A DNA stretch of 64,000 bases, taken from IMG/VR virus record IMGVR_UViG_3300024324_000416, positions 1 to 64,000 of that record. One strand, written 5' to 3'. Shown here in pieces: positions 1,911 through 18,710 of the stretch; position 1 is the first letter of the stretch, and each line of letters opens with the position of its first letter. The translations under genes and the position numbers were made by a program. The DNA comes from a virus. The notes below the pieces were generated by a model. The model was not told the DNA's origin and did not search any database. It saw only the letters and a list, made by a program, of their open reading frames with translations.

Positions 1911-1960
1911 GCCAGAATACTTTATTGTGTTCCATTTATGACCTATTTGCAAAGTAATAG

Positions 1961-1971
1961 TATGGTATAAT
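1961..1971 (+). promoter_or_regulatory. Extended -10 promoter
   Basis: TATGGTATAAT; RBS GGAGG at 1991-1995. Confidence 0.75.
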
Positions 1972-2002
1972 AAAATCAAATACTTTTCTAGGAGGATTGT
2001 TC

Positions 2003-3496
2003 GTGGGTTGGGATGAAGTAAAAGATGAAAAAGAAGGATATGTAAGAGTACGAAAGGGTAATGACCGTGGTAGTCTTGTTGGTCATATGCGTGACGCAAA
2101 CGATGATCCTAATGCAAAAGGATATATTGAACTAAATAAAGAAGACCTTGGCGGCATGGGTGATGGAGGATCTGCCCCACACTCCCATCCAGAGTATGTA
2201 GGAAAGACACATGCTCACGATGATAAGGCAGACACAACCCACACTCACAACAACTATGCAGACAAGACACACGATCATCCACCACAGGATCTAACCCACA
2301 ATCACAATGGGGTTTACCAGCCTGCGGGTACTTATGCAGACAAGACACATGCTCACCCTGAGAAGGCTGACACAACCCACACTCACGACACGACTCATAA
2401 TCACGACGCGGATTACGCACCTGTTCACGATCACCCGTATGCGTCTGACGGTCACGACCACGACGCTGCCTACAAGCATGACCATCCGTATGCGAAGGAT
2501 GACCACACGCATGACACATCGCATAGCCACGGCAATTACTTTCTCAAAGGTGGCGGGACTGACGATGACGGGAACTCGTTGCCCTTGCCTTACGGGGATG
2601 CGTTCACGCTGGGTGAGGCTGTCGATGGGGTCAAGGATGAGAACAGCGAGCAGAATGGTAGGCTAGATGCAGTTGAGGCTCACGGCCACCCTGACCTTGC
2701 GACCAAGGAAGATGTTGCGGCTTTGGAAGCGGAGATGGAACTGCTTGCCAAGACCTTGGAGTTCGGTGTATGGCAGGTTACTGATTCCAGTATTCGTCCT
2801 GGGAAAGTTAACTTGACCAGTAATGACTTTTCCGCAGTCGATAACATCTTGAATATCCACAACGAGGATACCAACGGTAAGACTCACGGCTGGACTGCTC
2901 TTGATGCTGGCTCGTACATTGAGTTAACCCAAGGCTCCTCCTCTGATGGTCGCAGTCTTGCTGACGCTGATTACGCCCTGTATGAGGTGACTAGCGTGAT
3001 GACAACTGACGACTGGGTTTCTATCACGGTGAAGTTGTATCAGGGTAACGGTGACGGGGTTAATGATGAGTTCTTCCGTATCAAGGTTATTGACCTTGCT
3101 GGTACTGACATTAACGACTTGGATTCGCGTTACGCAAAAACGAATCACACGCATGATGACAAGGTTCATCCTGGTAGGCCGTTCAGGTTTACTCCTGGCT
3201 TAAATGCCGACGGCGGCTTCCAAACCTTGGATGGTGGAGCACGGATTACCTTCGCCGTAAAAGACTTGAATGGCCTATCAAGGGTTCAGAACTCGTACCC
3301 TGATTTCTCTTGGGACGAGCATTGCAAAATAACTGTCTGGCATCGTGATTCTGGCGTTCTCAAGTTCGCGCTTAAAGCGGGAAAAACAACCGACTACAGC
3401 GCAGGGCATATTTCGTTCAAGGGTGGAGCGAAACTGTACGACAAGGGACTCGTTACTGGCGAGGTCTATGACATTGTGGTTGAGGGGTATTGGTAA
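2003..3496 (+). CDS. His-rich (HxH repeat) fibre-like protein
   Basis: GTG start after GGAGG (MGWDEV...); 13 tandem HxH motifs, short coiled coil, beta-rich C-terminus. Confidence 0.65.
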   Translation: MGWDEVKDEKEGYVRVRKGNDRGSLVGHMRDANDDPNAKGYIELNKEDLGGMGDGGSAPHSHPEYVGKTHAHDDKADTTHTHNNYADKTHDHPPQDLTHNHNGVYQPAGTYADKTHAHPEKADTTHTHDTTHNHDADYAPVHDHPYASDGHDHDAAYKHDHPYAKDDHTHDTSHSHGNYFLKGGGTDDDGNSLPLPYGDAFTLGEAVDGVKDENSEQNGRLDAVEAHGHPDLATKEDVAALEAEMELLAKTLEFGVWQVTDSSIRPGKVNLTSNDFSAVDNILNIHNEDTNGKTHGWTALDAGSYIELTQGSSSDGRSLADADYALYEVTSVMTTDDWVSITVKLYQGNGDGVNDEFFRIKVIDLAGTDINDLDSRYAKTNHTHDDKVHPGRPFRFTPGLNADGGFQTLDGGARITFAVKDLNGLSRVQNSYPDFSWDEHCKITVWHRDSGVLKFALKAGKTTDYSAGHISFKGGAKLYDKGLVTGEVYDIVVEGYW

Positions 3497-4404
3497 TGAT
3501 TGGTATGGGATTTACGCAAACAACGGGTAAAGAAGGAAACTGGCCCAAGGAAGTAACACACGCACGCATCTGGGATATAGGTGCAACATGGAAGGATATT
3601 CATGTTGGCCCTGACCAATACAATTGGGGACGCTTAGACGAAGTAATGGCTAAGATGGAAGGTATGGGTTATAAACACATTACCTATGTTATTGCCGCTA
3701 CCCCCCGTTGGGCCGCACAAGATCCCAATGCCCCCCATAGTGCTCCTTGGTTAGGCCCAGGCACAAACTCTCTACCAGGAGATCTTAATGCTTCTTGGAA
3801 ACCATTCGTAGCAAACTTATCACAACGATACAAGGGTCGCATTCACGCATATGAAATTTGGAATGAACCACAACTTGCTGATTTTATGTATCCTTACGAT
3901 GATAAGAATCGTAACAAACTTGCTCAGATGACTAAAGACGCTTCTCGTATCATTAAGGGTAATGACCCTGCCGCAAAAATTGGGTGTGCGTCAGTATTGC
4001 CCAGACCAAGTTCGGGCGGTATGAAGAAGGCCAAGAAATATTTCACAGCACTTAAAAAGAAGGATAGTAAAAACTGGTGCGGCATTGACTTTGTTTCCTG
4101 CCACATTTATCCAATGGGCTCCACATCGCAAGGGAAGTTGTGGAAAGAATATCACCAAGACGTAAAGAAGACTATGAAGGATATGGGTTGCCCCACTACA
4201 AAACTATGGGTGACCGAAACAGCACTAGGATTACTCTCTGACGGAATCCCACAGGACAAGGTAGAGAAGTATATGCAAACCATTAAAGACTACGTTAAGG
4301 GTGGTTTTGTAATGTGGTATGCTTGGGAGCGTCCTGACTTAAAGGGTGCTTGGATTGGCGACGGCACATATGCATGGACAGCAATTAAAAAGAGGTGGAG
4401 TTGA
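3496..4404 (+). CDS. Clan GH-A glycoside hydrolase (GH5/GH39-like TIM barrel)
   Basis: YEIWNEP acid/base, SCHIYP, LWVTET nucleophile, WYAW; TAATG coupling to upstream gene. Confidence 0.8.
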   Translation: MIGMGFTQTTGKEGNWPKEVTHARIWDIGATWKDIHVGPDQYNWGRLDEVMAKMEGMGYKHITYVIAATPRWAAQDPNAPHSAPWLGPGTNSLPGDLNASWKPFVANLSQRYKGRIHAYEIWNEPQLADFMYPYDDKNRNKLAQMTKDASRIIKGNDPAAKIGCASVLPRPSSGGMKKAKKYFTALKKKDSKNWCGIDFVSCHIYPMGSTSQGKLWKEYHQDVKKTMKDMGCPTTKLWVTETALGLLSDGIPQDKVEKYMQTIKDYVKGGFVMWYAWERPDLKGAWIGDGTYAWTAIKKRWS

Positions 4405-4532
4405 TGATAAAGATGAGTGATACAAAATTTGATGATGCAGAAGACGAAGAGAACTTCAAGTTGAAAGATATTCAACCTGAACCTTTTGTTGACGCACCTA
4501 GTGATGATGAAGGGGTGTCTGAAGATGCGTAG
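4404..4532 (+). CDS. Small acidic protein (42 aa; alternative start 4413), not in ORF track
   Basis: TGATG coupling; (MIK)MSDTKFDDAEDEENFKLKDIQPEPFVDAPSDDEGVSEDA*. Confidence 0.55.
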   Translation: MIKMSDTKFDDAEDEENFKLKDIQPEPFVDAPSDDEGVSEDA

Positions 4533-5205
4533 TGTAAAGAAGCAACAGGAATGGGCGAAGGGCCAGATCAAGAACCCTAGCCAAAGTTGGGATGGAATGT
4601 GCCAGTCGTTTGCTCGTCAGTCATACGGCATGGGTGGTTTTGGCGGTAGTGCGACTATCGCTTATGGCAACGTTTCGGAAAAATTTAAGCACAAGATTAC
4701 AAAGTACAGCGACAAGGAATGGTGGTCTTCGATCCCTCAGGGTGCTCTGATTTATTCTGATTCGGGAAAATATGGTCATGCTTGGGTTGCTGCTGGTGAC
4801 GGTGCTGCTTATTCTAACGACTATAAGCGTAAAGGTAAGATAGATAAGGTTCCTGTAGATCTTCCTGGTTGGAGCAATGTAAAGAAGGCTACTCTTGGTT
4901 ACATTGACGGCTGCCAGTGGTATGACAAGGACGGCAGCAAGAGATTCGGTTTGTCGTTTGACTTGTGGGACGGCAAGATTCCTCCGTTTGAGAATGTTAT
5001 GGCAGCGTTTGAGGATCAGTCTCTTGCCAATAAAGCAGTTTGGCGACTTGCTTGCCGATTGCGGGATATTGGATACGGAAAAGGTTCTCCAGTTGCTTAT
5101 GAGCAAAAGTGGCCTAATAAAAATTATGGTATTTGGTGTGACGCTATGAAGTTGGATAGTAAAAACTTCAGCGAAGTTGAGTTCAATCTAATCTTTGGTG
5201 TGTAA
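4525..5205 (+). CDS. Endolysin, CHAP/NlpC-P60-like Cys-His peptidase plus shared C-terminal domain
   Basis: WDGMCQSF and YGHAW motifs; C-terminal LWDGK domain shared with the two amidases. Confidence 0.7.
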   Translation: MRSVKKQQEWAKGQIKNPSQSWDGMCQSFARQSYGMGGFGGSATIAYGNVSEKFKHKITKYSDKEWWSSIPQGALIYSDSGKYGHAWVAAGDGAAYSNDYKRKGKIDKVPVDLPGWSNVKKATLGYIDGCQWYDKDGSKRFGLSFDLWDGKIPPFENVMAAFEDQSLANKAVWRLACRLRDIGYGKGSPVAYEQKWPNKNYGIWCDAMKLDSKNFSEVEFNLIFGV

Positions 5206-6548: not shown

Positions 6549-6710
6549 ATGGACCCAAGAGAACGGCAACGTTTGGCTCGTGAAGCAGCCAAGGCTGGAA
6601 AGAATCCTGCCCCTGCCCCTGCACCTGTAGAAGAGGTTGTAGAGGTAGAAGAGGTAGTGGAGGTAGAAGTAGATCAGGAAGATAAACCCAGAACATTTTG
6701 GGGTGGCTGA
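6549..6710 (+). CDS. Small Pro/Glu-rich protein (53 aa), not in ORF track
   Basis: Own promoter and RBS; MDPRERQRLAREAAKAGKNPAPAPAPVEEVVEVEEVVEVEVDQEDKPRTFWGG*. Confidence 0.75.
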   Translation: MDPRERQRLAREAAKAGKNPAPAPAPVEEVVEVEEVVEVEVDQEDKPRTFWGG

Positions 6711-6712
6711 TC

Positions 6713-7603
6713 ATGGCTGTATCATCAGACAAGTTTAAGAAGGCACTAGATGCCTCTGGGTTAGACATTGAGTGGATGAGTGGTTGGAAGAACACTTGGC
6801 ACGGAATGAGTGCATGGAAGGGTAAGAACGGTAACCCCGTTGCCTTGATGCTTCATCATACCGCAGGTGCTTCCACAGATTCTACTGACCCCAAGCACAA
6901 GGGAAACCAATGTTCTGCTGATGACGGGCAGGTAAAGTTCGTACACCGCCACCCAGAGTTCAAAAGTCCCGCATCGCAATTCACTTTGCGACGTTGTGGT
7001 AAGTTAGCGATTAACGCCTACAAGCCTTGCTACCATGCAGGTAAGGGAGATTTTTCTGGTACAGAGTGGAAGGGTCTTGGAATTCCCAAGGACTCCGCAA
7101 ATACCTACCTCATGGGAATTGAAATCGTTTCGAAGGGACTTAAAGAAGATCTAACAGAAAATCAATGGCGAACACTCGCTACCCTTGCTAAGACACTTTC
7201 TGATTTGTATGGTTGGGGAGATACCGATACTTTCCACTTCCCCCGACACAAGGACTACGCTCCAGATCGCAAGGTAGATATCAAGGCATCAAACAAAATG
7301 GTGCAGAAGAAGTTCCAAGAGTACGCAGGACTATGGGATGGCAAGGTTCCAGCCATCGAAGGAATCTACAATGCCGAATTCGATCCTACACTCAAGAACC
7401 CTGCTACATGGAGACTTGCTAGTCGCCTAGCAGATTTGGGACACTACAAAGGCACACCTGTTAAGGGTGAAGTCGGATATCCAAAGAAAGCAATGGAAAA
7501 CTTTAATGCAAATACTAATATGGAAGACAAGTCAGCCTATGGTCCTAAGGCACATCGAAAAATCTTTAACATCGACAAGAGTGTTCCTGACGAAGAACTG
7601 TAA
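6713..7603 (+). CDS. Endolysin, second Amidase_2 paralog
   Basis: LMLHHTAG, CYHAGKG, MGIEI, RHKDY...RKVD; clearly paralogous to 5338-6243. Confidence 0.85.
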   Translation: MAVSSDKFKKALDASGLDIEWMSGWKNTWHGMSAWKGKNGNPVALMLHHTAGASTDSTDPKHKGNQCSADDGQVKFVHRHPEFKSPASQFTLRRCGKLAINAYKPCYHAGKGDFSGTEWKGLGIPKDSANTYLMGIEIVSKGLKEDLTENQWRTLATLAKTLSDLYGWGDTDTFHFPRHKDYAPDRKVDIKASNKMVQKKFQEYAGLWDGKVPAIEGIYNAEFDPTLKNPATWRLASRLADLGHYKGTPVKGEVGYPKKAMENFNANTNMEDKSAYGPKAHRKIFNIDKSVPDEEL

Positions 7604-7758
7604 GTAAGTGTGAAGATACAAAGCACAAGAGCGATAAGTTTAGTATAGAACACAACCACACCTAGGGCGAACTCGTGGCTATGAATCTCGGGGCAAGATA
7701 TATAGGATGATGACTTAACCTATAATTCGGCGGCAGAGAAAAAATATTTTCTTAAATT

Positions 7759-7769
7759 TATGGTATAAT
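7759..7769 (+). promoter_or_regulatory. Extended -10 promoter
   Basis: TATGGTATAAT; RBS GAGGGTG before ATG 7802. Confidence 0.75.
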
Positions 7770-7801
7770 TATATCAATACTTTGAACGAGGGTGATTATT
7801 A

Positions 7802-7963
7802 ATGGGTTGGGTTTCTCAAACCTCATACATTTATGTTTGGGGCAATGGTGGGAAGATAGGTCCAGGTGGAGGTTCTACACCAGGACCAGGACCAGGGCCA
7901 GATCCAGAGGATCTATCATTTATCCTAGACCAAAGTAAATTAGACACAGGAAAATTGGGGTAG
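7802..7963 (+). CDS. MGWVSQTSYIY microprotein 1 (53 aa), not in ORF track
   Basis: MGWVSQTSYIYVWGNGGKIGPGGGSTPGPGPGPDPEDLSFILDQSKLDTGKLG*; paralog at 11981. Confidence 0.8.
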   Translation: MGWVSQTSYIYVWGNGGKIGPGGGSTPGPGPGPDPEDLSFILDQSKLDTGKLG

Positions 7964-7973
7964 GGAGATAACA

Positions 7974-8789
7974 ATGGGTAAAACATATGTAGCAGACGAG
8001 GTGCTTAAGGCAACAGACCTAAACGCATCACTAGCAGATAAGATTGATAAGGGAGATTCCACTTACACAGACTTGAATGAAGTACAGACAGCAGTAGAAG
8101 CACTTGATGCTCGTCTTACTCACATTGAAGAAAACATTGAACCATCTATTCAAACCATTGTTAATACAGACGTTACTGTTACTGCTGGTGGTGCTGTAGC
8201 CACAGTAGATCCCCTAGGATCAGGTGGTTGGTACTACGCAAACTCTGGTGTCGGTGGTGAAAAAGCAAACTGGTACTTCTTTGGTCAGGGTGGTGGAGCA
8301 CTTACAGAAATTGTCACTTTGGGTGACCTAAACTCTATTTATGGTTTCTTCCGTCCCCGTTCAAATGAAACCCGCATTCCTTACGCTGCCCTCTACACAG
8401 CACCTCAAGGTGATGCCGACGACGCAGAAACTTGGTATCGATCCCGCATCGTATGGGAGATTCTTCCTGACCAACCAGGAGTACCCAATACAGGTGGTGA
8501 TACTCACAACTGGCCCACAATCGCACCAGGAGTACACGAGCCCCTACTAGCATGGGCAGGCAAGACCGACCCTGACGTATTCACAAACGTTACTCATTAC
8601 CAAATGCTAGAACAAGATTTTGTAACCGCAGGCCCAAAGGGAGATGAAGAGATTGTTTTGTTCCTTGTTATTGGAACTGACTCAAGTGAGAGTGCAGGCG
8701 GGTATAACTTTGTTCTCAATACAACAGGGGCAGATCTTGCTCTTGGAGGATATCAGTCAACATTACTAGCAGTACAATCAGACCTGTAG
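7974..8789 (+). CDS. Putative virion fibre/minor structural protein
   Basis: N-terminal YVADEVLKATDLN motif, short coiled coil; RBS GGGAGA. Confidence 0.5.
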   Translation: MGKTYVADEVLKATDLNASLADKIDKGDSTYTDLNEVQTAVEALDARLTHIEENIEPSIQTIVNTDVTVTAGGAVATVDPLGSGGWYYANSGVGGEKANWYFFGQGGGALTEIVTLGDLNSIYGFFRPRSNETRIPYAALYTAPQGDADDAETWYRSRIVWEILPDQPGVPNTGGDTHNWPTIAPGVHEPLLAWAGKTDPDVFTNVTHYQMLEQDFVTAGPKGDEEIVLFLVIGTDSSESAGGYNFVLNTTGADLALGGYQSTLLAVQSDL

Positions 8790-8803
8790 GAGGATATTGA
8801 AAA

Positions 8804-9838
8804 ATGGCAACAGTAAGTGGTGGATCTAAGCCTACTTTTACCGTAGATCAGGTTCTACATGCGGCAGAGATGAATCAACTAAACCAAGAATGGATTGTTG
8901 ACTCTGTTCCAGCAGGAAGTGCTGGTAAGAATGGTGACGTTGTTTTTGTAACTAACCAAGGTGGCGTGTGGGCAAAGGTTTCTGGATCATGGGTACAAGC
9001 ATCACTAACAAGTGCCGATATGCAATCCCTACAGGATCAAGTTGATGCTATTCAATCTAATGGATACGACGATTCAGAACTACGAGGACTTATCTCTGAT
9101 GAGGAAACCGAAAGGGTAGCAGGAGATCAAAATCTACAAAATCAGATTGATACTATTCAGTCTGGTGGATATGATGATACACAACTACGTTCTGACTTTG
9201 CAGCAGCAGATGCAGCAACTCTAACTAATGCTAATGATTACACAGATCAAGAAATTGCAGGAATTACTGTTCCTGATGTTTCTGACCTTGCTACAAAGAC
9301 TGAGGTTTCAGATGGTGATACAGCAACTCTAACTGCTGCCAATGCTTACACAGACGGCAAGGTTTATGACGCTACTTCTTTAGAGGCCGACGTTGCTCAA
9401 AACACAAGCGACATTTCTACTCTACAGACAGAGCAGGGCACACAAGATATTGCTATTCAAGCCAACACAGATGCCCTTGCTGATAAGTCAGACACAGATC
9501 ACATTCACGCCGCTGTCCCAGCACACCAACACCCACACGATCACAATACAGACTATGCTGCCATTATTCACACTCACACAGAAGTACCAGGACACAATCA
9601 CTCTAACTACGCCACAAAGACAGAACTATCAGATGGTTTAGCAGAAAAAGCAGACGATGACCACGTTCACATCCAAACGGGTAGTGGATTAACATTTGAT
9701 CCTGACCGTGAAGGCCAAGTAGTTCAATCTACAAACGGTATTGATTGGACAGCAGGAATGAGTCTAAGGGTAGTAACTTCCGTCCCAGATGAGACTGAGG
9801 GCGAAATTGGTGACGTTGTTTTCGTAGTGGGTGCGTGA
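8804..9838 (+). CDS. Fibre shaft protein (coiled coil plus HxH repeats)
   Basis: FTVDQVLHAAEMN N-terminus; GYDD and TLTxANxYTD repeats; HxH cluster; GDVVFV twice. Confidence 0.6.
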   Translation: MATVSGGSKPTFTVDQVLHAAEMNQLNQEWIVDSVPAGSAGKNGDVVFVTNQGGVWAKVSGSWVQASLTSADMQSLQDQVDAIQSNGYDDSELRGLISDEETERVAGDQNLQNQIDTIQSGGYDDTQLRSDFAAADAATLTNANDYTDQEIAGITVPDVSDLATKTEVSDGDTATLTAANAYTDGKVYDATSLEADVAQNTSDISTLQTEQGTQDIAIQANTDALADKSDTDHIHAAVPAHQHPHDHNTDYAAIIHTHTEVPGHNHSNYATKTELSDGLAEKADDDHVHIQTGSGLTFDPDREGQVVQSTNGIDWTAGMSLRVVTSVPDETEGEIGDVVFVVGA

Positions 9839-10695
9839 TGGCTGATCCTGGCGTGTGGGTCAAGGTTCAGCAGGGCGTTGCCACCGACGGTGGCGGTATT
9901 TACGCTAAGACTGCTGATGGTTGGACTGAGATCCCCGCAAGCAGCGTGACAAACGACCCGACCGCACCGATTGGCCCTAGCGTGTTTGATGAGGGTGCTG
10001 GAACGGGCGGCACTTACTTTGACAAGACCATAGGCGACACGACGTACAGGACTGTTGAGTTCTTGGACGACGGGACGTTTGTGTTGAGTCAGCCTGGTTT
10101 TGTTAGTTGGTGGTTGGGCAGCGCAGGCAAGAACGGCCTTGCCTCAGGGCAAAGCGCAATCATTGGCATAGGTGGCGGTCATGGTGCTGTCTGGGAGATG
10201 CACGACTGGTACTTGCCTGCTGGAACGTACACGGTCACGATTGGGCAGCCTGGGCGAAACTCTGGTAGCGCAGGCGCGTCAACAGTCGTTGAACCCGACA
10301 CGATCATTGGTGGCCTCATTAACGGGTTTGTTTGCAAAGGCGGTAACTCGTCAGACACCAACTACCCATTTGACTTGGGCGACAACAGAGGTGGGGTGCG
10401 GTTAGACAGCAACTACCAGCCAGAGTATTCATCTGGCACACCTGGGTCTGGTTACAACGGCGGTGGTGCTGGGCTGGGTGCTGATAACGCGAACAATCGT
10501 TACGGTGGTGATGCGAAACTGATTACGGGCTGGGCGCAAGCAGACTTTGATTACGGGCGGGGCGGCAACTCTGACTACGGGTATCACACGGTTGTCGCTA
10601 ACAGCGGTGACGGTGGCGGCGGTAATGAGAACTCATCTTTCCAAAAAGGCGGCTCTGGTCGTGCCTACATTCGGGTCAGGATTGTGGAGGACTGA
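9838..10695 (+). CDS. Glycine-rich adhesin/fibre-tip-like protein
   Basis: GVWVKV...YAKTADGW N-terminus; Gly-rich domain with GTYTVTIG and GGSGRAYIR. Confidence 0.6.
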   Translation: MADPGVWVKVQQGVATDGGGIYAKTADGWTEIPASSVTNDPTAPIGPSVFDEGAGTGGTYFDKTIGDTTYRTVEFLDDGTFVLSQPGFVSWWLGSAGKNGLASGQSAIIGIGGGHGAVWEMHDWYLPAGTYTVTIGQPGRNSGSAGASTVVEPDTIIGGLINGFVCKGGNSSDTNYPFDLGDNRGGVRLDSNYQPEYSSGTPGSGYNGGGAGLGADNANNRYGGDAKLITGWAQADFDYGRGGNSDYGYHTVVANSGDGGGGNENSSFQKGGSGRAYIRVRIVED

Positions 10696-11975
10696 TGAAA
10701 TCCACGAACCCTGACGGTGGTGTCTGGGTAAAAGTACACCCCGACAATACGGGTGGTGAACTGCCTGGTGTTGTGAGTATGTATGCAAAAACAGCAGATG
10801 GATGGGTTGAGGTTGGTTCAAGTAATGTTGCAGCAGAAGGTGCACCACCCGCACCTGTTATTACAAATCCCGAAGGTGGAAGTATTATTAAGTTTACCTC
10901 TGGTGGAAATGGTGCTGCTGGTGTTACCCTTGCTTATGGAGCAACCATTGAACCTCAAGGTGCAACTGTTGAGGTAGATCAAGACAATCTTGAAGTAATA
11001 GTTTCAGGCTCAATTCCTGATACTGACTACGTTGTTACTGTTTATGGTGTAAACGTTGCTGGTAAGGGTGAAGATGCAAAGACAAATCCTTTCCAACTGA
11101 ACTACAACGTTGCCACGGGAGGCAGCGAAAACATCGTGAATAACTACAACGGCACAAGCGAGAAGTGGAAGGTGCATACGTTCACAGGTAACGACACTTT
11201 CACGGTCGAAAGCAGCGTCAACAACTACCGCTACGTTGTTGTCGCTGGCGGTGGCGGAGCAGGCGGCGGCTCAGGCAATAACGCTCAAGGCTGGACCGCT
11301 GGAGGCGGTGGCTCTGGCGGAGTCTTGAACAGAAACGATCTTGTTCTGCCGCTAGGTGACATTCCTATCACTGTTGGCGGTGGCGGTGGAGGCGCAGGAC
11401 ACTCTGATTCTGGGTCGTCACCAAGAGGCGGTCAGGGCGGTGTATCGAAGATTGACACCTACGTTGTCACAACAGGTGGCGGCGGCGGTAATCATTCTGG
11501 CGGCTCTGGCGGCTCTGGCGGCGGTGGAGGTTTCGCAGGCGGTAATGGTGGCGGCGGAGGCGGCACGCTGGGTCAGGGCACAAACGGCACAGGTGGAAAC
11601 GGGCAAAGCCAACCAGCAGGGACAGGTGGCGGTGCAGGCGACGGCACATCAACAGCCCACACCACCGCAGGGCGCATAGACAACATCACGGGAACCGATG
11701 TGACCTACGCAAATACTTACGGAGCCATCGGTGGTGGCGGACCTGGCAACACACGCTACCAACTGACGGGAGCAAGCGGGAATAGCGGCATTGTTGTTAT
11801 CGCTTACCAGATTGGTATGAGCACCACAAGAGAAATCGAACAAGCACAGGCAGAACAAGCAGCCCGTGCCGCTGGTGTAGAAGAAGGCATCGAACAAGGA
11901 AAGCAAGAAGGATACGCACAAGCACAAGAAGAAGCAAAAGTGTGGTATAATGAACTTAACTTTAAAAAGGAGTGA
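10695..11975 (+). CDS. Glycine-rich adhesin/fibre-tip-like protein with FN3-like domain
   Basis: Same N-terminal peptide; PDTDYVVTVYGVNVAGKG (FN3-like); VHTFTG, VVAGGGG, GNSGIVVIAY. Confidence 0.6.
   Translation: MKSTNPDGGVWVKVHPDNTGGELPGVVSMYAKTADGWVEVGSSNVAAEGAPPAPVITNPEGGSIIKFTSGGNGAAGVTLAYGATIEPQGATVEVDQDNLEVIVSGSIPDTDYVVTVYGVNVAGKGEDAKTNPFQLNYNVATGGSENIVNNYNGTSEKWKVHTFTGNDTFTVESSVNNYRYVVVAGGGGAGGGSGNNAQGWTAGGGGSGGVLNRNDLVLPLGDIPITVGGGGGGAGHSDSGSSPRGGQGGVSKIDTYVVTTGGGGGNHSGGSGGSGGGGGFAGGNGGGGGGTLGQGTNGTGGNGQSQPAGTGGGAGDGTSTAHTTAGRIDNITGTDVTYANTYGAIGGGGPGNTRYQLTGASGNSGIVVIAYQIGMSTTREIEQAQAEQAARAAGVEEGIEQGKQEGYAQAQEEAKVWYNELNFKKE
11941..11951 (+). promoter_or_regulatory. Extended -10 promoter inside 3' end of upstream gene
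   Basis: TGTGGTATAAT; RBS AAGGAG before ATG 11981. Confidence 0.8.
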
Positions 11976-11980
11976 TTGCA

Positions 11981-12112
11981 ATGGGTTGGGTAAGTCAAAC
12001 ATCTTACATTTATGGATGGGCCAACGGCGGTAAGCCAGGTCCAGGCACAACAGTAGCATCTGCGCCTATTTCTGCTCCTTCTGTAGAAAACGACACTACT
12101 GACGAAGACTAA
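11981..12112 (+). CDS. MGWVSQTSYIY microprotein 2 (43 aa), not in ORF track
   Basis: MGWVSQTSYIYGWANGGKPGPGTTVASAPISAPSVENDTTDED*. Confidence 0.8.
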   Translation: MGWVSQTSYIYGWANGGKPGPGTTVASAPISAPSVENDTTDED

Positions 12113-12118
12113 ACTTCC

Positions 12119-12129
12119 TGTGGTATAAT
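12119..12129 (+). promoter_or_regulatory. Extended -10 promoter, leaderless start
   Basis: TGTGGTATAAT + 6 nt + ATG 12136, no RBS. Confidence 0.8.
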
Positions 12130-12135
12130 AGCCAT

Positions 12136-14058
12136 ATGTCTAATTCATCTGGTCTTTGGTTCTATAATTTAGCACAGTCAAATACGGCATACACTAGAGC
12201 ACTAAACTCATCTATTCTTCTTGCAGATGCAACAAAGCCAAGTCAAACATTTTCATCCTTGCGTAATGTTGGAAGCGGCGGGGAAGAGTACGATCTATTC
12301 TTTGATAGTGTTGATGTAAATATGACATTTAATACAGATAATGTATATTTCTCAGGTAAGGAATATGCTAAGTTCTCCTTGTTAAAAACAAAATTTGAAG
12401 ACACAAACTCCATTGACTTTGTTATTAATGTTGATTTAGATCCAGATCAGGTAGGATTGCAAACTCTTGTTTCTAGGGATGAGTCTTTTACTATCTTTTT
12501 AGATGATGGTATTCCTGTTTTTGAATCTACCTCTACCCGCTGGCTTATCACAGATACAGAGAATGATAGGATTAGAGAGCGTAAGGCTGTTTTCGTATAT
12601 AATGCTACAGAGGCTTTTACAGGATCTTGGTTGCGTGTGCGCTCTTCTTGGAGTGAAACAGGAACGGTAGTAGAGTTTTTCCAGAGTGATGATGGTGTTT
12701 CATACAGTCAAATAGGAACCAATATTACATCTAACGCTCTTGATATGTATTTTGGAGGTAGCACAATTACTGTTGCTGCTGATACAGGAGGCTTTAATTC
12801 TACCGCTGGAAAGTTCTACAAGTTTGAAGTAACTATGAACAATCCAGTATTGACTATCAATTTCGCTGATGCAGAGCCAGATAATCCTTGGTTTTATACA
12901 GAAGGAAACCTTGTAGAGTTTGTGCTACAAAGCAAAGAATCTACTGATCCTGTTTATTTAGAAAAGAGAGATGAGCCATATGTATTCTTCCCAAAGGGGT
13001 TTGGCAGAACATTCTCTAATGCCAAAATACCACAATCTTTTTATGAGTCAGACACTTGCGACATTCGTGTAGCATTTATTATTCCAGAGCAAGCAAGCAA
13101 CTGGAACGCAGATTTAATAAGTTTAAACGCTTTTAAGTTGTGTATTGATGATGGTGCTGTTTGTGTCCAGGGAGATGCCTATATGAAGGGAGACCAAACT
13201 TTTGATGACCTAGGGTATAAAAGGGGAGAGCCACTAGGGGCAAGACTTTTCTACAATAAGAAGACAAAGATGTTGAGTCTTTTTGTGGGGAAGCCATCAG
13301 AATCCGCATCAGATTTGGAAAGTTACATTTGGGTGGGTATAGGCAATAAAAAGTTAGAAAGGGCATCACAGGTATATGATACTATCACTCTTGGATCTAG
13401 AAACACAACAAGGGAAAACGACTTAATCATTCTTAATGCTAGTTTGTCTGGTGTAGATATTGATAAAGAAAATGTTGTTAATGAGATCAAGGATTCGTTC
13501 ACTACGGTGGTTGATAGAAGCATGATTCTACTAGACAAGTCATCTAAACTAAAGTCTAAGATATCTGACGCAGACTTTGACAATGGTTTCTCTCTTATGG
13601 TAGATCTCAAGAGCGTAAGCCAACCAACATATTTACCAGAAATTAGCAAAATGGAAAATGGTGTGGGTTGGTCTCTAGGAATAAGTGAAACCATGACTCC
13701 TGTCTTGATTGTTTCAGATGGTAACAAAACGGTAACGGTAAGGGGCAGCAAATTACAAGAAGGAGAAAACGTTTTGTCCGTAGTATTGGACAGAGAAAAC
13801 GAGGTCGCAACCCTTTACAATAATGGATTAAAATACGGTATGGGTTCCTTGGAAGGTGTGGGAAGCATAGCAAACAATAGCAAACTGTTTATTGGGGATA
13901 ATGATTTTGAGTTGTATAACGTTGGAATGTGGGACTACATGCTAACCGATGAAGAGGTTAAGGGCATGAGCCAGCATCTAAGGAGTATGACCAACTACGC
14001 CAATAATGCAGAGTTTGGACTATGGCATGTTGGTATCCCAGACCTAACTGTGGTATAA
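12136..14058 (+). CDS. LamG/concanavalin A-like multi-domain virion protein
   Basis: Beta-rich; C-terminal VVLDR...LYNNG...LFIG...WDYMLTDEEV resembles LamG domains. Confidence 0.55.
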   Translation: MSNSSGLWFYNLAQSNTAYTRALNSSILLADATKPSQTFSSLRNVGSGGEEYDLFFDSVDVNMTFNTDNVYFSGKEYAKFSLLKTKFEDTNSIDFVINVDLDPDQVGLQTLVSRDESFTIFLDDGIPVFESTSTRWLITDTENDRIRERKAVFVYNATEAFTGSWLRVRSSWSETGTVVEFFQSDDGVSYSQIGTNITSNALDMYFGGSTITVAADTGGFNSTAGKFYKFEVTMNNPVLTINFADAEPDNPWFYTEGNLVEFVLQSKESTDPVYLEKRDEPYVFFPKGFGRTFSNAKIPQSFYESDTCDIRVAFIIPEQASNWNADLISLNAFKLCIDDGAVCVQGDAYMKGDQTFDDLGYKRGEPLGARLFYNKKTKMLSLFVGKPSESASDLESYIWVGIGNKKLERASQVYDTITLGSRNTTRENDLIILNASLSGVDIDKENVVNEIKDSFTTVVDRSMILLDKSSKLKSKISDADFDNGFSLMVDLKSVSQPTYLPEISKMENGVGWSLGISETMTPVLIVSDGNKTVTVRGSKLQEGENVLSVVLDRENEVATLYNNGLKYGMGSLEGVGSIANNSKLFIGDNDFELYNVGMWDYMLTDEEVKGMSQHLRSMTNYANNAEFGLWHVGIPDLTVV

Positions 14059-14059
14059 T
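14049..14059 (+). promoter_or_regulatory. Extended -10 promoter containing upstream stop codon; leaderless start
   Basis: TGTGGTATAAT + 6 nt + ATG 14066. Confidence 0.8.
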
Positions 14060-14065
14060 AATACT

Positions 14066-14827
14066 ATGCCTGAAAATTATCCAGACCCAGTTGCAGGTCC
14101 ATTCATCATCCCCTCACTAGGGGACATTGCTGATGCCCCAGAGGGCTTCAAAGAGTTTGCCGACTCTATTCCTATTGGTGGAAATATCCGCATTATTGAT
14201 GCCACATCCACACCATTTACTATCACCCAGGCACATTCGGGTTCCCTACTGTCTTTTAAGGTTGCAGACGCATCCATTAAGTTTGATCCAGCACTTACAG
14301 AAGGTTTCAACTGTGGTTTGATCTCAACTGCTGGTGCTATTTATGTTGATCCCGCAGAAACCTTCCAAGGTGATAGTCAGGTATCTATTTACACTATGGG
14401 CTCTGTCGTAAAGGTAGCAGGAGATGTTATTGTTTCTAGGCCACAGGATCTATCTGAGGTTTCAGCAAACCTAAAGGTAAATAAATATGAAGCGGCAATA
14501 GTCACTATTGACGCTCAAAACGATAAGAATGGTGTTCTAACACTTAATACACAAGATAATGCAACATGGTCGGTTCCTGGGGGGTATGGTATTGGTGACG
14601 TTGTAAATATTTGTAATGCCTCTGATACTGATATGACTGTTGTTGCTGGTGATGGAGAGTCTGTAAAGTTCTGGTATGGAGCAACAACCATTGAGTCTAA
14701 TGGATCACCAGATAGATTCACATTGGCTACAAATTCAACCGCTACCCTTGTTCGCATTCCCAAGACGGGAAGTACGTCTACTGACTTTGCTTTAGGTGCA
14801 ATTGCTAGTGCTGTGAGTTGGTTATAA
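14066..14827 (+). CDS. Putative virion fibre/adaptor protein
   Basis: N-terminus (IPSLGDIADAPEGFKEFADSIP) paralogous to 16928 gene; two related beta domains. Confidence 0.5.
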   Translation: MPENYPDPVAGPFIIPSLGDIADAPEGFKEFADSIPIGGNIRIIDATSTPFTITQAHSGSLLSFKVADASIKFDPALTEGFNCGLISTAGAIYVDPAETFQGDSQVSIYTMGSVVKVAGDVIVSRPQDLSEVSANLKVNKYEAAIVTIDAQNDKNGVLTLNTQDNATWSVPGGYGIGDVVNICNASDTDMTVVAGDGESVKFWYGATTIESNGSPDRFTLATNSTATLVRIPKTGSTSTDFALGAIASAVSWL

Positions 14828-16927
14828 ATGGCTATTCTTGGAATGCATTATACGCAAGATCCAACAGACCCCGAAGCATATAAACACACCGACTGGGTTC
14901 GTATGTGGGATAACGAGGTTTATTGGAATCGCATTCACTATGGCGTAGATAAATACAGTTGGGGAAGACTTGATTACTTAGTAAATGATTTGTATGCTGG
15001 AAAAGAAATTGTGTATTGCATCGGTGGAACACCACAATGGTTAGCACAAAATCCCAGTCAGGGAGACTACAAGCCATGGATGGGTGCTGGGTCAAACTCA
15101 TTACCTTCTGACACTAGCGGCGGTACAGACTCTTACGGAGACTCATTCAGCAAAGGTACTGACGAATGGAACAAGTTCTGTTATGTACTTGCTGATAGAT
15201 ACAAGGGAAGAATAAAGGCTTATGAGTTTTGGAATGAGCCACAGTTGCTTGGCTACATGGCACCCTGGGATTCAACTACCCGTAATCTAATGGCTAAGAT
15301 GATTAAGCGAGGGGCAGGAACCTTAAAATCAGTAGATTCAAATGCCATTACTATTGGGCCAAGCATTTTTGTGGGAACCTCTGGGCGTGTGACACGAGCC
15401 ACAAAGATCGTTGAGGCTTTGGCTGGAACACAGAGTAGTTACGGCCCTTGGGAAAATCTAGATGCCATGGCCTGCCATATCTATCCAGCAGAAGGGGATG
15501 GGAAAACAGAATGGCGGCGGCAGTTAGATGAAAACAGAAGCATTATTTCAAGCAACGGTGGCCCCAGTAAAACATGGATCACAGAAACAAACTACAACCT
15601 TCTTGGCGAAGTCCTTCCAGAAGACGGAACCACATACAACCTAGTTTCTAACACATATGATGAGGCAGGTGGAAAGTTCATCTTCTGGTACGCATACGAT
15701 AGAACAGCAGACCTAGGTGGTTTGGATATCCGTGCCCCACAAGACGGAAATAGTTTTGAAGCGTTCAACGCTATGGTTGAAAAGACAAAGGGAATCACAT
15801 ACCCTCCATTATTGGATGTTACCATTACCTCATCTCACACAACATGGACGGGTAGCAATCCAACGGACTCCGCAACAGTAAGTTTCACCATATCAAATAA
15901 CGGTTTGAATGGTGTTGAGGTATCTCACAGCAAGGGTGGACTTGAGCCTGCTTTTGGATCTGTTCCCATTACCGCTGGGGGCTCCACTACATACGAAGCC
16001 GAAATAACAGAAGATCCACCATCTAGTACATACACAGTAACATTCACCATTACTGATGGAATCAATACAGAGGACTACACCGTATCTGAGGTGCTAGATC
16101 CAAAGCCCTCCCCCCTTCCACAGATTTCTCTTTCCGTAAACGGTATCGAAGGAGACTGGACTGGATCAGAAGCAAATGACTCCAAGACCTTCACCTTCAA
16201 CGTACAGAATACATCTGATAGCAATAGCCTTACTGTCACTCATAGTAGAGGTGGTCTAACTCCATCTTCCTTGTCTTTGAGTGTGGGCTCATCTGCAACC
16301 TTTACAGAAAGCATTACATCTCGTCCAGCAAGCGGTATCTATGAAGTTACTTTTACAGGTACCGCAAGTGATTCAAGAACAAAGCAATATTACGAGTCAT
16401 TCAACGTAACAGAAAAGCCCCCTCCCCCACCACCAGACGAGGGTGACGAAAGTCATCAACTAACTTGTAGTTGGAAGAATGATAGGAATAAGGAAACTCT
16501 GGAAACAGAGCATACCGTTGATGGGCCTGCCAGATACGCAGAAGATAACTGTACTGAATACTTCCAAGAGCAGTACCCAGAAAAATGGGTAGGTGGAGAT
16601 GATTGGTTCTTAACATCATACGAGTGGGACGATGATGGTGCAGAGAATGTTAATCCCCCAGGAGGAAGCGGCAACAAGGCATGGCCTATTGTTGATCTTG
16701 CAGAAGTACTTCTAAAAGATGGAGACAGCATTAACGAAAATCACTATAGGCAATTGGTTGTAATGGAAGATGGTGGAGTCCTAAACATTCCAGAAGAAAT
16801 GGATATAGGGTTCCAGTTCGCTCTGGTGTGCTATAATTATCCTGTTACGTTGGTAACGGGCAAGGTAGATAATACAGAAAGCACCGTACCAACCAACACA
16901 CTAGCAATTGTAAGTAAGGTGATTTAA
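14828..16927 (+). CDS. Clan GH-A glycoside hydrolase plus two Ig-like repeats plus fibre-type domain
   Basis: YEFWNEP, ACHIYP, WITET, FWYAY; repeated WTGS...F...N...HS(K/R)GGL; paralog of 3496-4404. Confidence 0.75.
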   Translation: MAILGMHYTQDPTDPEAYKHTDWVRMWDNEVYWNRIHYGVDKYSWGRLDYLVNDLYAGKEIVYCIGGTPQWLAQNPSQGDYKPWMGAGSNSLPSDTSGGTDSYGDSFSKGTDEWNKFCYVLADRYKGRIKAYEFWNEPQLLGYMAPWDSTTRNLMAKMIKRGAGTLKSVDSNAITIGPSIFVGTSGRVTRATKIVEALAGTQSSYGPWENLDAMACHIYPAEGDGKTEWRRQLDENRSIISSNGGPSKTWITETNYNLLGEVLPEDGTTYNLVSNTYDEAGGKFIFWYAYDRTADLGGLDIRAPQDGNSFEAFNAMVEKTKGITYPPLLDVTITSSHTTWTGSNPTDSATVSFTISNNGLNGVEVSHSKGGLEPAFGSVPITAGGSTTYEAEITEDPPSSTYTVTFTITDGINTEDYTVSEVLDPKPSPLPQISLSVNGIEGDWTGSEANDSKTFTFNVQNTSDSNSLTVTHSRGGLTPSSLSLSVGSSATFTESITSRPASGIYEVTFTGTASDSRTKQYYESFNVTEKPPPPPPDEGDESHQLTCSWKNDRNKETLETEHTVDGPARYAEDNCTEYFQEQYPEKWVGGDDWFLTSYEWDDDGAENVNPPGGSGNKAWPIVDLAEVLLKDGDSINENHYRQLVVMEDGGVLNIPEEMDIGFQFALVCYNYPVTLVTGKVDNTESTVPTNTLAIVSKVI

Positions 16928-17347
16928 ATGTCTGATCCCATCTTAACTGATACATACACCACTACCCCCTTGCCCCCAATGACTGTGGGTTGGGACGCAC
17001 AGGTTCCTTCATATGACGCAAGGGTGGATATGCCTCAGGCATTTCGTCAGTTTGCTGATACTATCCCAGAAGACTTCCCTATTGGAACCATGGAGCAGTC
17101 TGGCTTACCGTTTGTTATTGATGAAACACACTTACAAAAGATTATTATTGCAACAAACCCTACAGTTGAGCAATGGAATATTACTGAGGGGCTAGACGTT
17201 GGTTTTCAAGTATCAGTTGATCCAACTACGGCAAGCATCAACATCGTGATTAATGGCGGTGTAGAGCAGATGTTCCCAGGAAGTCAAATAACTGCCCTGA
17301 GCATCTTAACAAAAATCTCTGAAACAGAATGGATATTGAGTCAATAA
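16928..17347 (+). CDS. Putative virion adaptor protein
   Basis: VPSYDARVDMPQAFRQFADTIP; GLDVGFQ...LTKISETEWIL; RBS AAGGTGA. Confidence 0.5.
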   Translation: MSDPILTDTYTTTPLPPMTVGWDAQVPSYDARVDMPQAFRQFADTIPEDFPIGTMEQSGLPFVIDETHLQKIIIATNPTVEQWNITEGLDVGFQVSVDPTTASINIVINGGVEQMFPGSQITALSILTKISETEWILSQ

Positions 17348-17511
17348 TGTTATCACAAGCATGGTGGCTACTAGGCCCATCAACACTAAACAGGGACGAT
17401 AGGTATTACGGACGAGAGCCAGATGACTTTGTGCCATTCGTTCTTGACTATTCTTCAATTGGTGGCGATGACCAACTGAAAGAGTATTTCGAACTACCAG
17501 AAAGTCCCTAA
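17347..17511 (+). CDS. Hypothetical protein
   Basis: TAATG coupling, fills the gap. Confidence 0.5.
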   Translation: MLSQAWWLLGPSTLNRDDRYYGREPDDFVPFVLDYSSIGGDDQLKEYFELPESP

Positions 17512-17513
17512 TA

Positions 17514-17702
17514 ATGACGAAGCCTTGGAACCTACTAAGAAAAAAGAACTACACCACACAGGATGTAGCCGATGAGCGTCTTGATATATGTAGGATATGT
17601 CCAGAGTTTATCAAATCTACCAAGCAATGTAAGAAATGCGGGTGTTTTATGGTAGCCAAAACAAAACTAACAAAATCCACATGCCCTCTGGGTAAGTGGT
17701 AA
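17514..17702 (+). CDS. Small Cys-rich metal-binding protein
   Basis: RLDICRICP...QCKKCGC...CPLGKW. Confidence 0.7.
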   Translation: MTKPWNLLRKKNYTTQDVADERLDICRICPEFIKSTKQCKKCGCFMVAKTKLTKSTCPLGKW

Positions 17703-17703
17703 G

Positions 17704-17714
17704 TGTGGTATAAT
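17704..17714 (+). promoter_or_regulatory. Extended -10 promoter, leaderless start
   Basis: TGTGGTATAAT + 6 nt + ATG 17721. Confidence 0.8.
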
Positions 17715-17720
17715 ACCAAC

Positions 17721-18710
17721 ATGGCTATTAGATATCAAGAATGGGAAGATGGCGACAAACTATACGCATCCGCCCTAAACGAAGCGGTAGCAAATGGTGT
17801 TGTCCAAGTAGATCTTGTTTCTGAGATTGCTACTGTTTTTTCTAATCACCTAGAGGTAAACGTTGTATACTGCTTGGAGGACAATCTCACCTATGGTCGT
17901 GGACAAACAGAGTTTGAGCCACTACAGGTTTCTAAGGAGACAATCGTTCTCAGCGGAGAAGATGAGCAAGGTACCGCCACCACAACAAAAACAAGGTATG
18001 ATTCGGGTGGTAGCACATATGATAACTACACATTCAAGGGAACAGACACATTTTTGGTAAAGGCACCAGGAGCAGTTGTTGACATTCTTGTAACTTCTGG
18101 TGGAGGCCCAGGTGGAACCCAACACGCATCACACGGCGCAGGCGGCGGTGGAGGGGGAGGAACTAGGTACATTACAAATGTTACTCTAACACCAGGAACC
18201 TATTCCGTTTCTATTGGGAGTGGAACAGCGTCAGCATTTTATAGGACACAGGGCCATGGTCAGGGTGGAAGGTCTGTGTTTAAGAATGAAACAACAAATA
18301 TAGTTTTGTATAATCCCACAGGTGGAGGCCCAGGTGGGCACACATACAGCACCCAGGGGCAGGGAGAGAAGTGGAGTGGTCTTAACGGAGGATCTGGTGG
18401 CGGTGCTTCCGATGGAGGAGGAGTCGGGGCAGGTGTAGCAGGAGAGGGCCAAAACGGTGGTGGACTGACTGGTGGAGGCGCAGGCCCAACCTACGGTCAA
18501 GGTGGACAGGGAACAGGTCTTACTCTTACTAACTGGAAGGAATCTGGCAACTACTATGTTGCTCACACCAACAACAGAAACCATGCAAATGGCGCAGCAT
18601 ATTCGGGAGCAGGTGGATCATCTGGTGTTGGGGGAAACAATCACGGTGCGCATAACGGTGGAAAGTCTGGGGGATCTGGTATTATTATGATGAGGAAGAA
18701 GATAAAATGA
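17721..18710 (+). CDS. Glycine-rich fibre/adhesin protein
   Basis: WEDGDKLYASALN N-terminus; Gly-rich domain with GTYSVSIG, GGSGIIMMR. Confidence 0.6.
   Translation: MAIRYQEWEDGDKLYASALNEAVANGVVQVDLVSEIATVFSNHLEVNVVYCLEDNLTYGRGQTEFEPLQVSKETIVLSGEDEQGTATTTKTRYDSGGSTYDNYTFKGTDTFLVKAPGAVVDILVTSGGGPGGTQHASHGAGGGGGGGTRYITNVTLTPGTYSVSIGSGTASAFYRTQGHGQGGRSVFKNETTNIVLYNPTGGGPGGHTYSTQGQGEKWSGLNGGSGGGASDGGGVGAGVAGEGQNGGGLTGGGAGPTYGQGGQGTGLTLTNWKESGNYYVAHTNNRNHANGAAYSGAGGSSGVGGNNHGAHNGGKSGGSGIIMMRKKIK

Follow-up and report, generated by a model that had tools for sequence, protein, structure and literature searches.

Two MGWVSQ microproteins as candidate headers of exchangeable late-gene cassettes in a marine siphophage lineage

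Are the two very short open reading frames (ORFs) that begin with nearly the same peptide and enclose a group of fibre-like genes in IMG/VR virus record IMGVR_UViG_3300024324_000416 real genes and, if so, what would they do there? The window analysed comprises the first 64 kb of this 78,439-base contig; all its long ORFs lie on the + strand, and the coordinates given here are those of the window. Both ORFs are, with high confidence, genuine coding genes under purifying selection as protein. Concerning their role, we assign a probability of roughly 0.4 to a combined reading in which they are translated microproteins, head exchangeable cassettes and carry an N-terminal peptide (hereafter the N-peptide) that serves in docking or escort. 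The two genes and their signals are:

7759-7769, + strand: extended -10 promoter of type 1, TATGGTATAAT, a consensus match, present in the related loci L003-L008 as TATGGTATAAT or TATGATATAAT
7776-7801, + strand: short leader of type 1 with the Shine-Dalgarno sequence GAGGGTGA, resembling the leaders of type 2 and of gene 2003-3496 (ACTTT..AGG.GTGATT)
7802-7963, + strand: microprotein type 1, 53 residues, with the constant N-peptide, a Pro/Gly linker of variable length and the FILDQSKLDTGKLG tail
7802-7867, + strand: shared N-terminal module of 22 codons, MGWVSQTSYIYVWGNGGKIGPG, recognised by its synonymous and non-synonymous differences and as a 66-nt repeat
7919-7960, + strand: tail motif of type 1, FILDQSKLDTGKLG, near-invariant in 17 type 1 sequences
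11941-11951, + strand: extended -10 promoter of type 2, TGTGGTATAAT, inside the end of gene 10695-11975
11981-12112, + strand: microprotein type 2, 43 residues, with the constant N-peptide, a Pro/Ala/Ser stretch and an acidic end

The initial annotation had reported the common start MGWVSQTSYIY.W.NGGK.GPG, and it is indeed present in both ORFs; the back-translated pattern of MGWVSQTSYIY occurs at exactly 2 sites in the window, against 0 in 100 shuffles, and a protein search across the whole contig gave no third copy. The tails are also as described there, with a Pro/Gly linker leading to FILDQSKLDTGKLG in the first copy and a Pro/Ala/Ser stretch before an acidic end in the second. At the DNA level the two starts form a repeat of 66 nt (80% identity, spacing 4179 nt, repeat family D6), and promoter, leader and first 22 codons together make up a diverged direct repeat of ~110 nt. 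In agreement with the separate promoters and ribosome-binding sites attributed to them, each ORF is preceded by the promoter motif TGGTATAAT (7761-7769 and 11943-11951, as consensus matches) and by a Shine-Dalgarno sequence upstream of its ATG, GAGGGTGA at 7788-7795 and AAGGAGTGA at 11967-11975. On its + strand the window holds the extended -10 motif TGGTATAAT 21 times, where 0.45 would be expected, and the motif is retained across all the related loci.

It had been proposed from the codons of the two copies that conservation acts at the protein level. The differences listed (GTT/GTA, TCT/AGT, ACC/ACA, TCA/TCT and AAT/AAC) are all there, and the proportions of synonymous (pS) and non-synonymous (pN) differences bear the proposal out. 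Between the paralogues, over codons 2-18 in the window and eleven related loci, pS is 0.55-0.73 against a pN of 0.10, and the comparison includes the serine codon-family switch TCT/AGT. Among six type 2 genes pS is 0.29 and pN 0 over codons 2-21, and in the remainder of the ORF the values are 0.13 and 0.18 (pN/pS 1.3), which is the behavior of a drifting acidic tail. In type 1 genes pN/pS is 0.28 and 0.24 for the two parts of the ORF. No conserved RNA structure was found, with 0 compensatory pairs in eleven aligned headers; Rfam and tRNA scans of the window gave no matches, suggesting that it holds no intron or known RNA element. From the pN/pS pattern and the lack of RNA structure we conclude that selection acts on the peptide, in type 2 on its first 21 residues only. 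By this conservation, the functional part is the first 18-21 residues, with the core MGWVSQ..Y..VWGNGGK.

As regards expression, contigs from RNA libraries of four seawater runs cover 7807-8142, 7815-8145, 7885-8198 and 7897-8113, and each joins type 1 to the start of the next gene, 7974-8789. They lend weak support to the transcription of type 1, as DNA can be carried over into such libraries. The type 2 region (11807-12340) was uncovered in the four runs, although contigs cannot show absence. A joint from 8303 to 10602 in two RNA runs was ignored, its shorter side being only 21 nt long. Monomer prediction with AlphaFold2 gave a predicted local distance difference test score (pLDDT) of 51 and no confident fold, and a complex prediction with three chains of the 7974-8789 protein and three of type 1, using custom alignments, scored 0.01, a value that speaks neither for nor against binding.

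The frame-preserving homologues that the initial annotation had called for do exist, also across in-frame indels of the linker. About 25 distinct relatives are known, all of 42-61 residues and with the frame intact, and the metagenomes they come from are all of seawater or estuaries. Fifteen of them, 46-61 residues long, came from a word-index search of 5.8 billion proteins, which gave no longer homologue; a profile search of all 1.84 billion representatives gave six true matches of 44-54 residues, two of which repeat known sequences. The only long matches of the profile search, P0018 and P0021, were rejected as relatives, being repetitive with many weak repeats. We recovered fifteen metagenome loci, to which the L numbers refer, and the runs that hold this stretch of DNA are seawater metagenomes. 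Type 1 proteins are 50-61 residues long, their linker indels are always in frame and the tail is kept; FILDQSKLDTGKLG is near-invariant in 17 sequences, and it is the linker and residues 36-39 that vary. A hybrid form combines the Val-Trp-Gly residues of type 1 with an acidic tail. Distant members keep MGWVS, a Tyr and VWGNGG despite diverged DNA, and all have a Pro-rich stretch and an acidic end, suggesting that the architecture called blank in the initial annotation is the common form and the FILDQSKLDTGKLG tail a derived variant. One relative of type 2, P0019, keeps the N-peptide and has lost the acidic tail, its frame having changed so that it runs on into the next promoter; it may be a true tail-less form or may stem from faulty assembly.

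Outside this set no relative was found. Neither microprotein matched Pfam or PHROG, even at E up to 10; sequences of the PDB and the ESM Atlas gave no meaningful or usable match, and IMG/VR and GTDB genomes gave none by protein patterns or degenerate DNA patterns. Among cultured phages the type 1 peptide had no match, type 2 had only one at chance level (E 7), and a nucleotide search with 7600-12200 had none. The nearest cultured relatives by portal protein are Streptomyces phages such as Francob (46-48% identity), with which the contig has in common the gene order lysin, portal, tape measure, DnaE; a comparable fibre cassette or microprotein gene is absent from Francob. The carriers are marine siphophages distantly related to Streptomyces cluster BE-like phages, and the microproteins appear to be a new, lineage-restricted protein family with no annotated relative.

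A constraint on the first 21 residues alone, followed by a Pro-rich stretch and a neutral tail, would also suit a regulatory leader peptide. The nascent N-peptide would then act in the ribosome exit tunnel, with a pause at Lys-Pro-Gly-Pro-Gly and the rest of the ORF as a spacer, and the pause would set the ribosome traffic into a coupled downstream gene or the occupancy of the adjacent promoter. The ORF ends at the Shine-Dalgarno sequence of the next gene in type 1 and in the form of L016, or 6 nt before a promoter in type 2, and in some relatives the type 1 stop overlaps the start codon of the 7974-8789 homologue. As with TnaC, SecM and SpeFL, a short ORF conserved in its amino acids stands before genes that could be regulated, with Pro and Gly after an invariant Trp; in TnaC and SecM, Trp and Pro are of key importance for the arrest. 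However, known arrest peptides are conserved near a C-terminal stall site, not from residue 1, while here the constraint begins at residue 1, lies on codons 2-21 and ends ~20-35 codons before the stop, the other type 2 codons being free (pN/pS 1.3). The type 1 tail is conserved as protein, unlike a spacer, there is no conserved downstream RNA structure that could form a switch, the downstream arrangements differ by type, and type 1 of the window has no Pro-Pro stalling motif. We consider such a pause unlikely, and its proposed effect on ribosome traffic or promoter occupancy equally so.

The two genes are part of a larger unit, which we call a header: an extended -10 promoter is followed by a short leader, in which there is a strong Shine-Dalgarno sequence, and by a short ORF. 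Type 1, type 2, the L016 form and one full-length gene resemble one another in promoter, leader and start region. The features that matter for the position of these units are:

1961-2011, + strand: third header, with TATGGTATAAT, a similar leader and the start GTG GGT TGG (MGW) of the 497-residue, His-rich, fibre-like gene 2003-3496
11933-12129, + strand: island of nucleotide conservation made of the type 2 header and the next promoter, a probable mosaic joint
12119-12129, + strand: leaderless promoter of the LamG-like gene 12136-14058, 6 nt past the type 2 stop, repeat family D5

Invariant columns make up 73-90% of 11933-12129, against 0-33% upstream and 23-47% downstream. L011 is 91% identical to the window over 11933-12129 and matches it next from 14051, both places being promoter copies. 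L012 follows the window from its holin gene up to 6528 and then continues at 11937, the promoter being the shared stretch, so that the promoter of the holin adjoins the type 2 header; the similarity of L003 to the window resumes at 11936. Between the two headers, the window, L003 and L010 have different numbers and kinds of genes. Since nucleotide similarity stops and restarts at the leaderless promoters 12121-12129 and 14051-14059, these would delimit a module of one gene that can be replaced. The breakpoints of swapped, lost or gained fibre and lysis modules thus coincide with headers and with further copies of the promoter, and we hold with high confidence that the microprotein genes, as far as alignments of these loci can tell, sit at mosaic joints.

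In L011 and L014 the LamG-like gene is replaced by one of 674 residues that is similar only at its C-terminus.

This coincidence would also be expected if the microproteins were evolutionary leftovers, that is, a duplicated 5' end of a fibre gene kept only as promoter and recombination joint, with an inert peptide; the full-length gene 2003-3496 opens with the same promoter, leader and MGW start. Against this stand a pN of 0 with a pS of 0.29 over codons 2-21, the change of serine codon family from one paralogue to the other, a frame of 42-61 residues that is open in ~25 of ~25 variants and the persistence of MGWVS..VWGNGG in distant members whose DNA has diverged. Besides, a profile of the N-peptide run against 680 ORFs of the window retrieved only the two microproteins, and the 2003-3496 protein is unrelated to them beyond MGW. 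The same profile led us to reject a kinship of the N-peptide with the N-terminus of that protein or with the fibre motifs GDVVFV, GVWVKV and DGWVEV. That the peptide is inert is therefore very unlikely.

What the headers precede can be read from the gene neighbourhoods, of which the first is the group of four genes that the initial annotation had called fibre or adhesin genes:

7974-8789, + strand: fibre-like protein of 271 residues, starting MGKTY..VLKATDLN, the constant downstream neighbour of type 1
8804-11975, + strand: three further fibre-like genes, two of them Gly-rich and varying in number and kind among relatives

There are four ORFs between the two copies (7974-8789, 8804-9838, 9835-10695 and 10695-11975, + strand), as had been claimed. 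For two of them there is a match to Pfam Gly_rich_2, in one case above the curated cut-off and in the other just short of it, and one of the pair has a match to a PHROG tail family as well; the C-terminal domain of the 7974-8789 protein matches proteins labelled hypothetical or 'tail' in phages of marine Synechococcus and Vibrio. With these matches the label 'fibre-like' is reasonable, not proven. An AlphaFold2 model of the 7974-8789 protein had a pLDDT of 41.

Type 1 lies directly upstream of a 7974-8789 homologue in 7/7 loci (the window and L003-L008). In some relatives the TAG stop of type 1 is replaced by CAG, giving six extra codons and a TAA that overlaps the ATG of the fibre-like gene. 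A programmed frameshift or read-through that would fuse type 1 to this gene was considered and rejected: the CAG variants gain only those six codons, and in L003-L008 the frame of the fibre-like gene is closed 3 codons upstream of its ATG. No fused relatives were found in the word-index and profile searches, all the homologues of the gene having an N-terminus of their own; with no fused homologue and no frameshift route, type 1 is not the N-terminal part of a split or fused fibre gene. Nor does it resemble chaperones of the Tfa, gp38 or gp57A type, as it belongs to no Pfam or PHROG family and lies upstream of the fibre-like gene, whereas Tfa-type genes are directly downstream.

Within the 7974-8789 family the relatives P0033 and P0034 have, in place of MGKTY..VLKATDLN, the N-terminus IQIKRGTAA.W... 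(Pfam PF18454), and other homologues have long His-rich insertions. By sequence, N-terminal modules seem to have been swapped onto a constant C-terminal domain. The end of gene 8804-9838 (..GDVVFVVGA) repeats the first part of a motif found whole near its own N-terminus, GDVVFVTNQGGVWAKVSGSWVQ, and the continuation GVWVKV... opens the next, overlapping gene (window 9779-9870) and is also at the start of the Gly-rich genes in L010, as if the boundary between two genes had cut through the motif.

Concerning type 2, it stands upstream of the 640-residue LamG-like gene or of the unrelated-looking 674-residue counterpart in 7/7 complete loci; the LamG-like gene had no match in cultured phages. Other members of the family are placed elsewhere. 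The hybrid form of L016 and L017 lies 2 nt before an amidase gene, and in L012 type 2 comes directly after the holin, showing that the family is not specific to the fibre cassette. In the window the corresponding place is taken by another gene:

6549-6710, + strand: unrelated ORF of 53 residues, containing the acidic stretch PAPAPAPVEE, at the place before amidase 2 that the microprotein holds in L016 and L017

This ORF and the microproteins have only the PAPAPV-acidic stretch in common. Loose ends of RNA-library contigs at 6710/6713 contain more acidic-tailed variants, ending at the Shine-Dalgarno sequence of the amidase gene.

Such neighbours raise the question whether the microproteins are small effectors that stand on their own and act on lysis or on the host, for instance by modulating or escorting amidase or holin or as an acidic decoy for a host protein, and whether they were shuffled into the fibre region. 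Members inside the lysis cassette occur in L012, L016 and L017; the place before amidase 2 in the window belongs to another small acidic ORF, unrelated to them, the RNA-library ends add more such variants, and the holin is acidic-tailed as well. A precedent is Gp1 of mycobacteriophage Ms6, a small chaperone-like protein encoded upstream of the endolysin gene lysA. The members of L016 and L017 and ORF 6549-6710 resemble it in being small genes directly upstream of an endolysin gene and coupled to it; the microproteins differ from it in having no similarity to known families and in that most of them are not beside a lysin gene. However, both copies adjoin fibre and LamG-like genes in the window and in L003, type 1 carries a tail motif linked to fibre genes, and the microproteins showed neither a signal peptide nor a transmembrane segment, nor any match to the lysis families of PHROG. 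There is in our view a small chance that they are effectors of this kind.

Two details of the lysis region deserve mention. Amidase 2 is listed as an ORF from TTG 6698 (MGWLIM...), and the homologues of L006, L007, L013, L016 and L017 start like ATG 6713, which is probably the true start; the 'MGW' at 6698 is an overlap with the end of ORF 6549-6710, unrelated to the microproteins. Some 120 nt between amidase 2 and the type 1 promoter (7621-7740) are present in the window and absent from L003, L006 and L007, and have no Rfam match.

The type 1 tail raises a further question, as a similar motif, F.[LV]D.S, occurs in a small protein that is unrelated to type 1:

17347-17511, + strand: second small-protein family, with the N-terminus QAWWLLGPSTL followed by FVLDYSSIGGDDQL, upstream of a Cys-rich ORF and of the Gly-rich fibre gene 17721-18710

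Its divergent relatives have FRVDISISDGTDIV at the same place as FVLDYSSIGGDDQL. An alignment of the two tails by hhalign was obtained and is not significant (P 0.13), and ORF 17347-17511 had no match in cultured phages. The protein has 54 residues and an acidic end, and its gene starts at a TAATG overlap with gene 16928-17347; after it come a 62-residue ORF with four Cys (weak match to DUF6171) and the leaderless gene 17721-18710, with the small genes spanning 17347-17702. The trio of small ORF, Cys ORF and Gly-rich fibre gene is kept in L009 and, in divergent form, in L011 and L014. By eye, ILDQSKLD of the type 1 tail resembles the pattern VLKATDLN of fibre N-termini.

The model of the initial annotation was built on these tails: the N-peptide would dock on the virion, type 1 would carry a hook that captures fibres with the VL.A..LN start, and type 2 would be a blank plug competing for the same sites and so setting the number of fibres. 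It is in keeping with this model that a constant N-peptide has two kinds of tail, that the type 1 motif is conserved and always adjoins the fibre-like gene 7974-8789, that the type 2 tail drifts freely (pN/pS 1.3), as expected of a tail with no partner, and that a similar motif is found on another small ORF before another fibre gene. Against it, the members with 'blank' tails are the widespread and more divergent form and are found before amidase and after holin, away from fibre genes; the resemblance of the motifs is not significant, and neither peptide had a match above chance level in cultured-phage proteins, which lends no support to the likeness to C-termini of minor tail proteins that the initial annotation had suggested for the hook. 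We regard hook and plug in this strict form as improbable.

The explanation we favour, the combined header reading, retains the docking idea in a looser form. On this reading the two ORFs form the 5' 'header' of late-gene cassettes that are exchanged within a lineage of marine siphophages. After the N-peptide come a Pro-rich spacer, variable in length, and then an end that depends on the cassette, the FILDQSKLDTGKLG tail being found with the fibre operon of 7974-8789 and the drifting acidic tail with the LamG-like gene or the amidase. The constant N-peptide may be a short docking or escort element that folds only on its partner, perhaps a component of the virion or of its assembly that all cassettes share, and the type 1 tail may make a further contact, linked to the fibre operon. 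With its ~110 nt, the repeat would provide at once a portable expression signal and homology for module exchange. Folding on binding is suggested by the lack of a confident monomer fold together with a short invariant aromatic segment and a floppy tail; we propose a docking function for the N-peptide with low confidence. A stronger version, in which the N-peptide would plug universally into one site of the virion or of its assembly and the exchangeable tails would recruit different host-recognition modules or leave the site empty, seems doubtful to us. If it were true, each swappable cassette would carry its own adaptor at its 5' end and exchange would be coupled to structural compatibility, with promoter, recombination joint and docking peptide all within ~110 nt.

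Several points weigh against the explanation we favour. The partner, the presence in virions and the binding are all putative, and the N-peptide resembles no N-terminus or docking motif of the window and no entry of Pfam, PHROG, PDB or the ESM Atlas. Since the LamG-like gene has a separate leaderless promoter, type 2 need not be co-expressed with it. The fact that the unrelated acidic ORF 6549-6710 takes the place before the amidase hints that the position may count for more than the peptide does. Identity between the paralogous repeats is ~80% and no perfect run exceeds 11 nt, which makes them a poor substrate for ordinary homologous recombination. Finally, the breakpoints at promoters could simply mark gene boundaries.

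It is useful to compare the headers with known systems. In T4-type phages the promoter-early stem-loop (PeSL) cassettes are short regulatory repeats with a strong sigma-70-type promoter scattered in variable regions (Arbiol et al. 2010, PMC2839356; Comeau et al. 2014, PMC4122927), and recombination between copies is described as shuffling, deleting or replacing the genes between them (PMC2839356). Mini-circles are a further product attributed to recombination of neighbouring PeSL copies. The headers resemble them in that each copy has a sigma-70-type promoter, by sequence match, in that copies flank variable genes and in that related genomes break at headers or promoter copies. The terminator stem-loop of PeSL was not found, as there is no terminator-like site at or beside either header and no conserved hairpin. 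Furthermore, the header repeat reaches into an ORF that is translated and selected as protein, the carriers are siphophages related to actinophages rather than T4-type myoviruses, and the genes concerned are late and host-recognition genes, whereas those of PeSL are early and non-essential. By analogy, PeSL cassettes appear to be the nearest known system in behavior; with no terminator stem-loop and with an added ORF under selection, the header unit would not be a member of that family but a variation on the idea.

The proposed docking, for its part, shares with branched receptor-binding systems the idea of a constant element that attaches exchangeable host-recognition modules to one virion site. 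In these systems (G7C gp66/gp63.1, CBA120 tailspikes) the anchors are folded N-terminal domains of large tailspikes, with solved interfaces. Here, in contrast, the candidate is a free protein of 43-61 residues with no predicted fold, never fused to a fibre, whose docking is proposed from sequence.

The genes discussed belong to a larger region. At 132-5205, upstream of the lysis genes, there are a subtilase (Peptidase_S8, E 4e-46), gene 2003-3496, the glycosyl hydrolase gene 3490-4404 and another ORF that resembles a lysin gene. Counted with 7974-18710, they form a block of host-surface genes of nearly 19 kb, which precedes the ribonucleotide reductase and head genes.

The host range of phages evolves largely by swapping of receptor-binding and lysis modules, and how the swapped modules remain compatible in expression and structure is poorly understood beyond a few model phages. 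In an abundant uncultured marine lineage, a repeated unit of promoter, leader and micro-ORF marks the joints of such modules. If docking or escort is true, the unit would amount to a compact plug-and-play device of natural origin, one that ties recombination to assembly, and would offer a useful handle for the engineering of fibres; if the microproteins are leader peptides, they would represent a new arrest-type regulator in phage late genes. Either way, they are a clean example of a functional microprotein overlooked by routine annotation.

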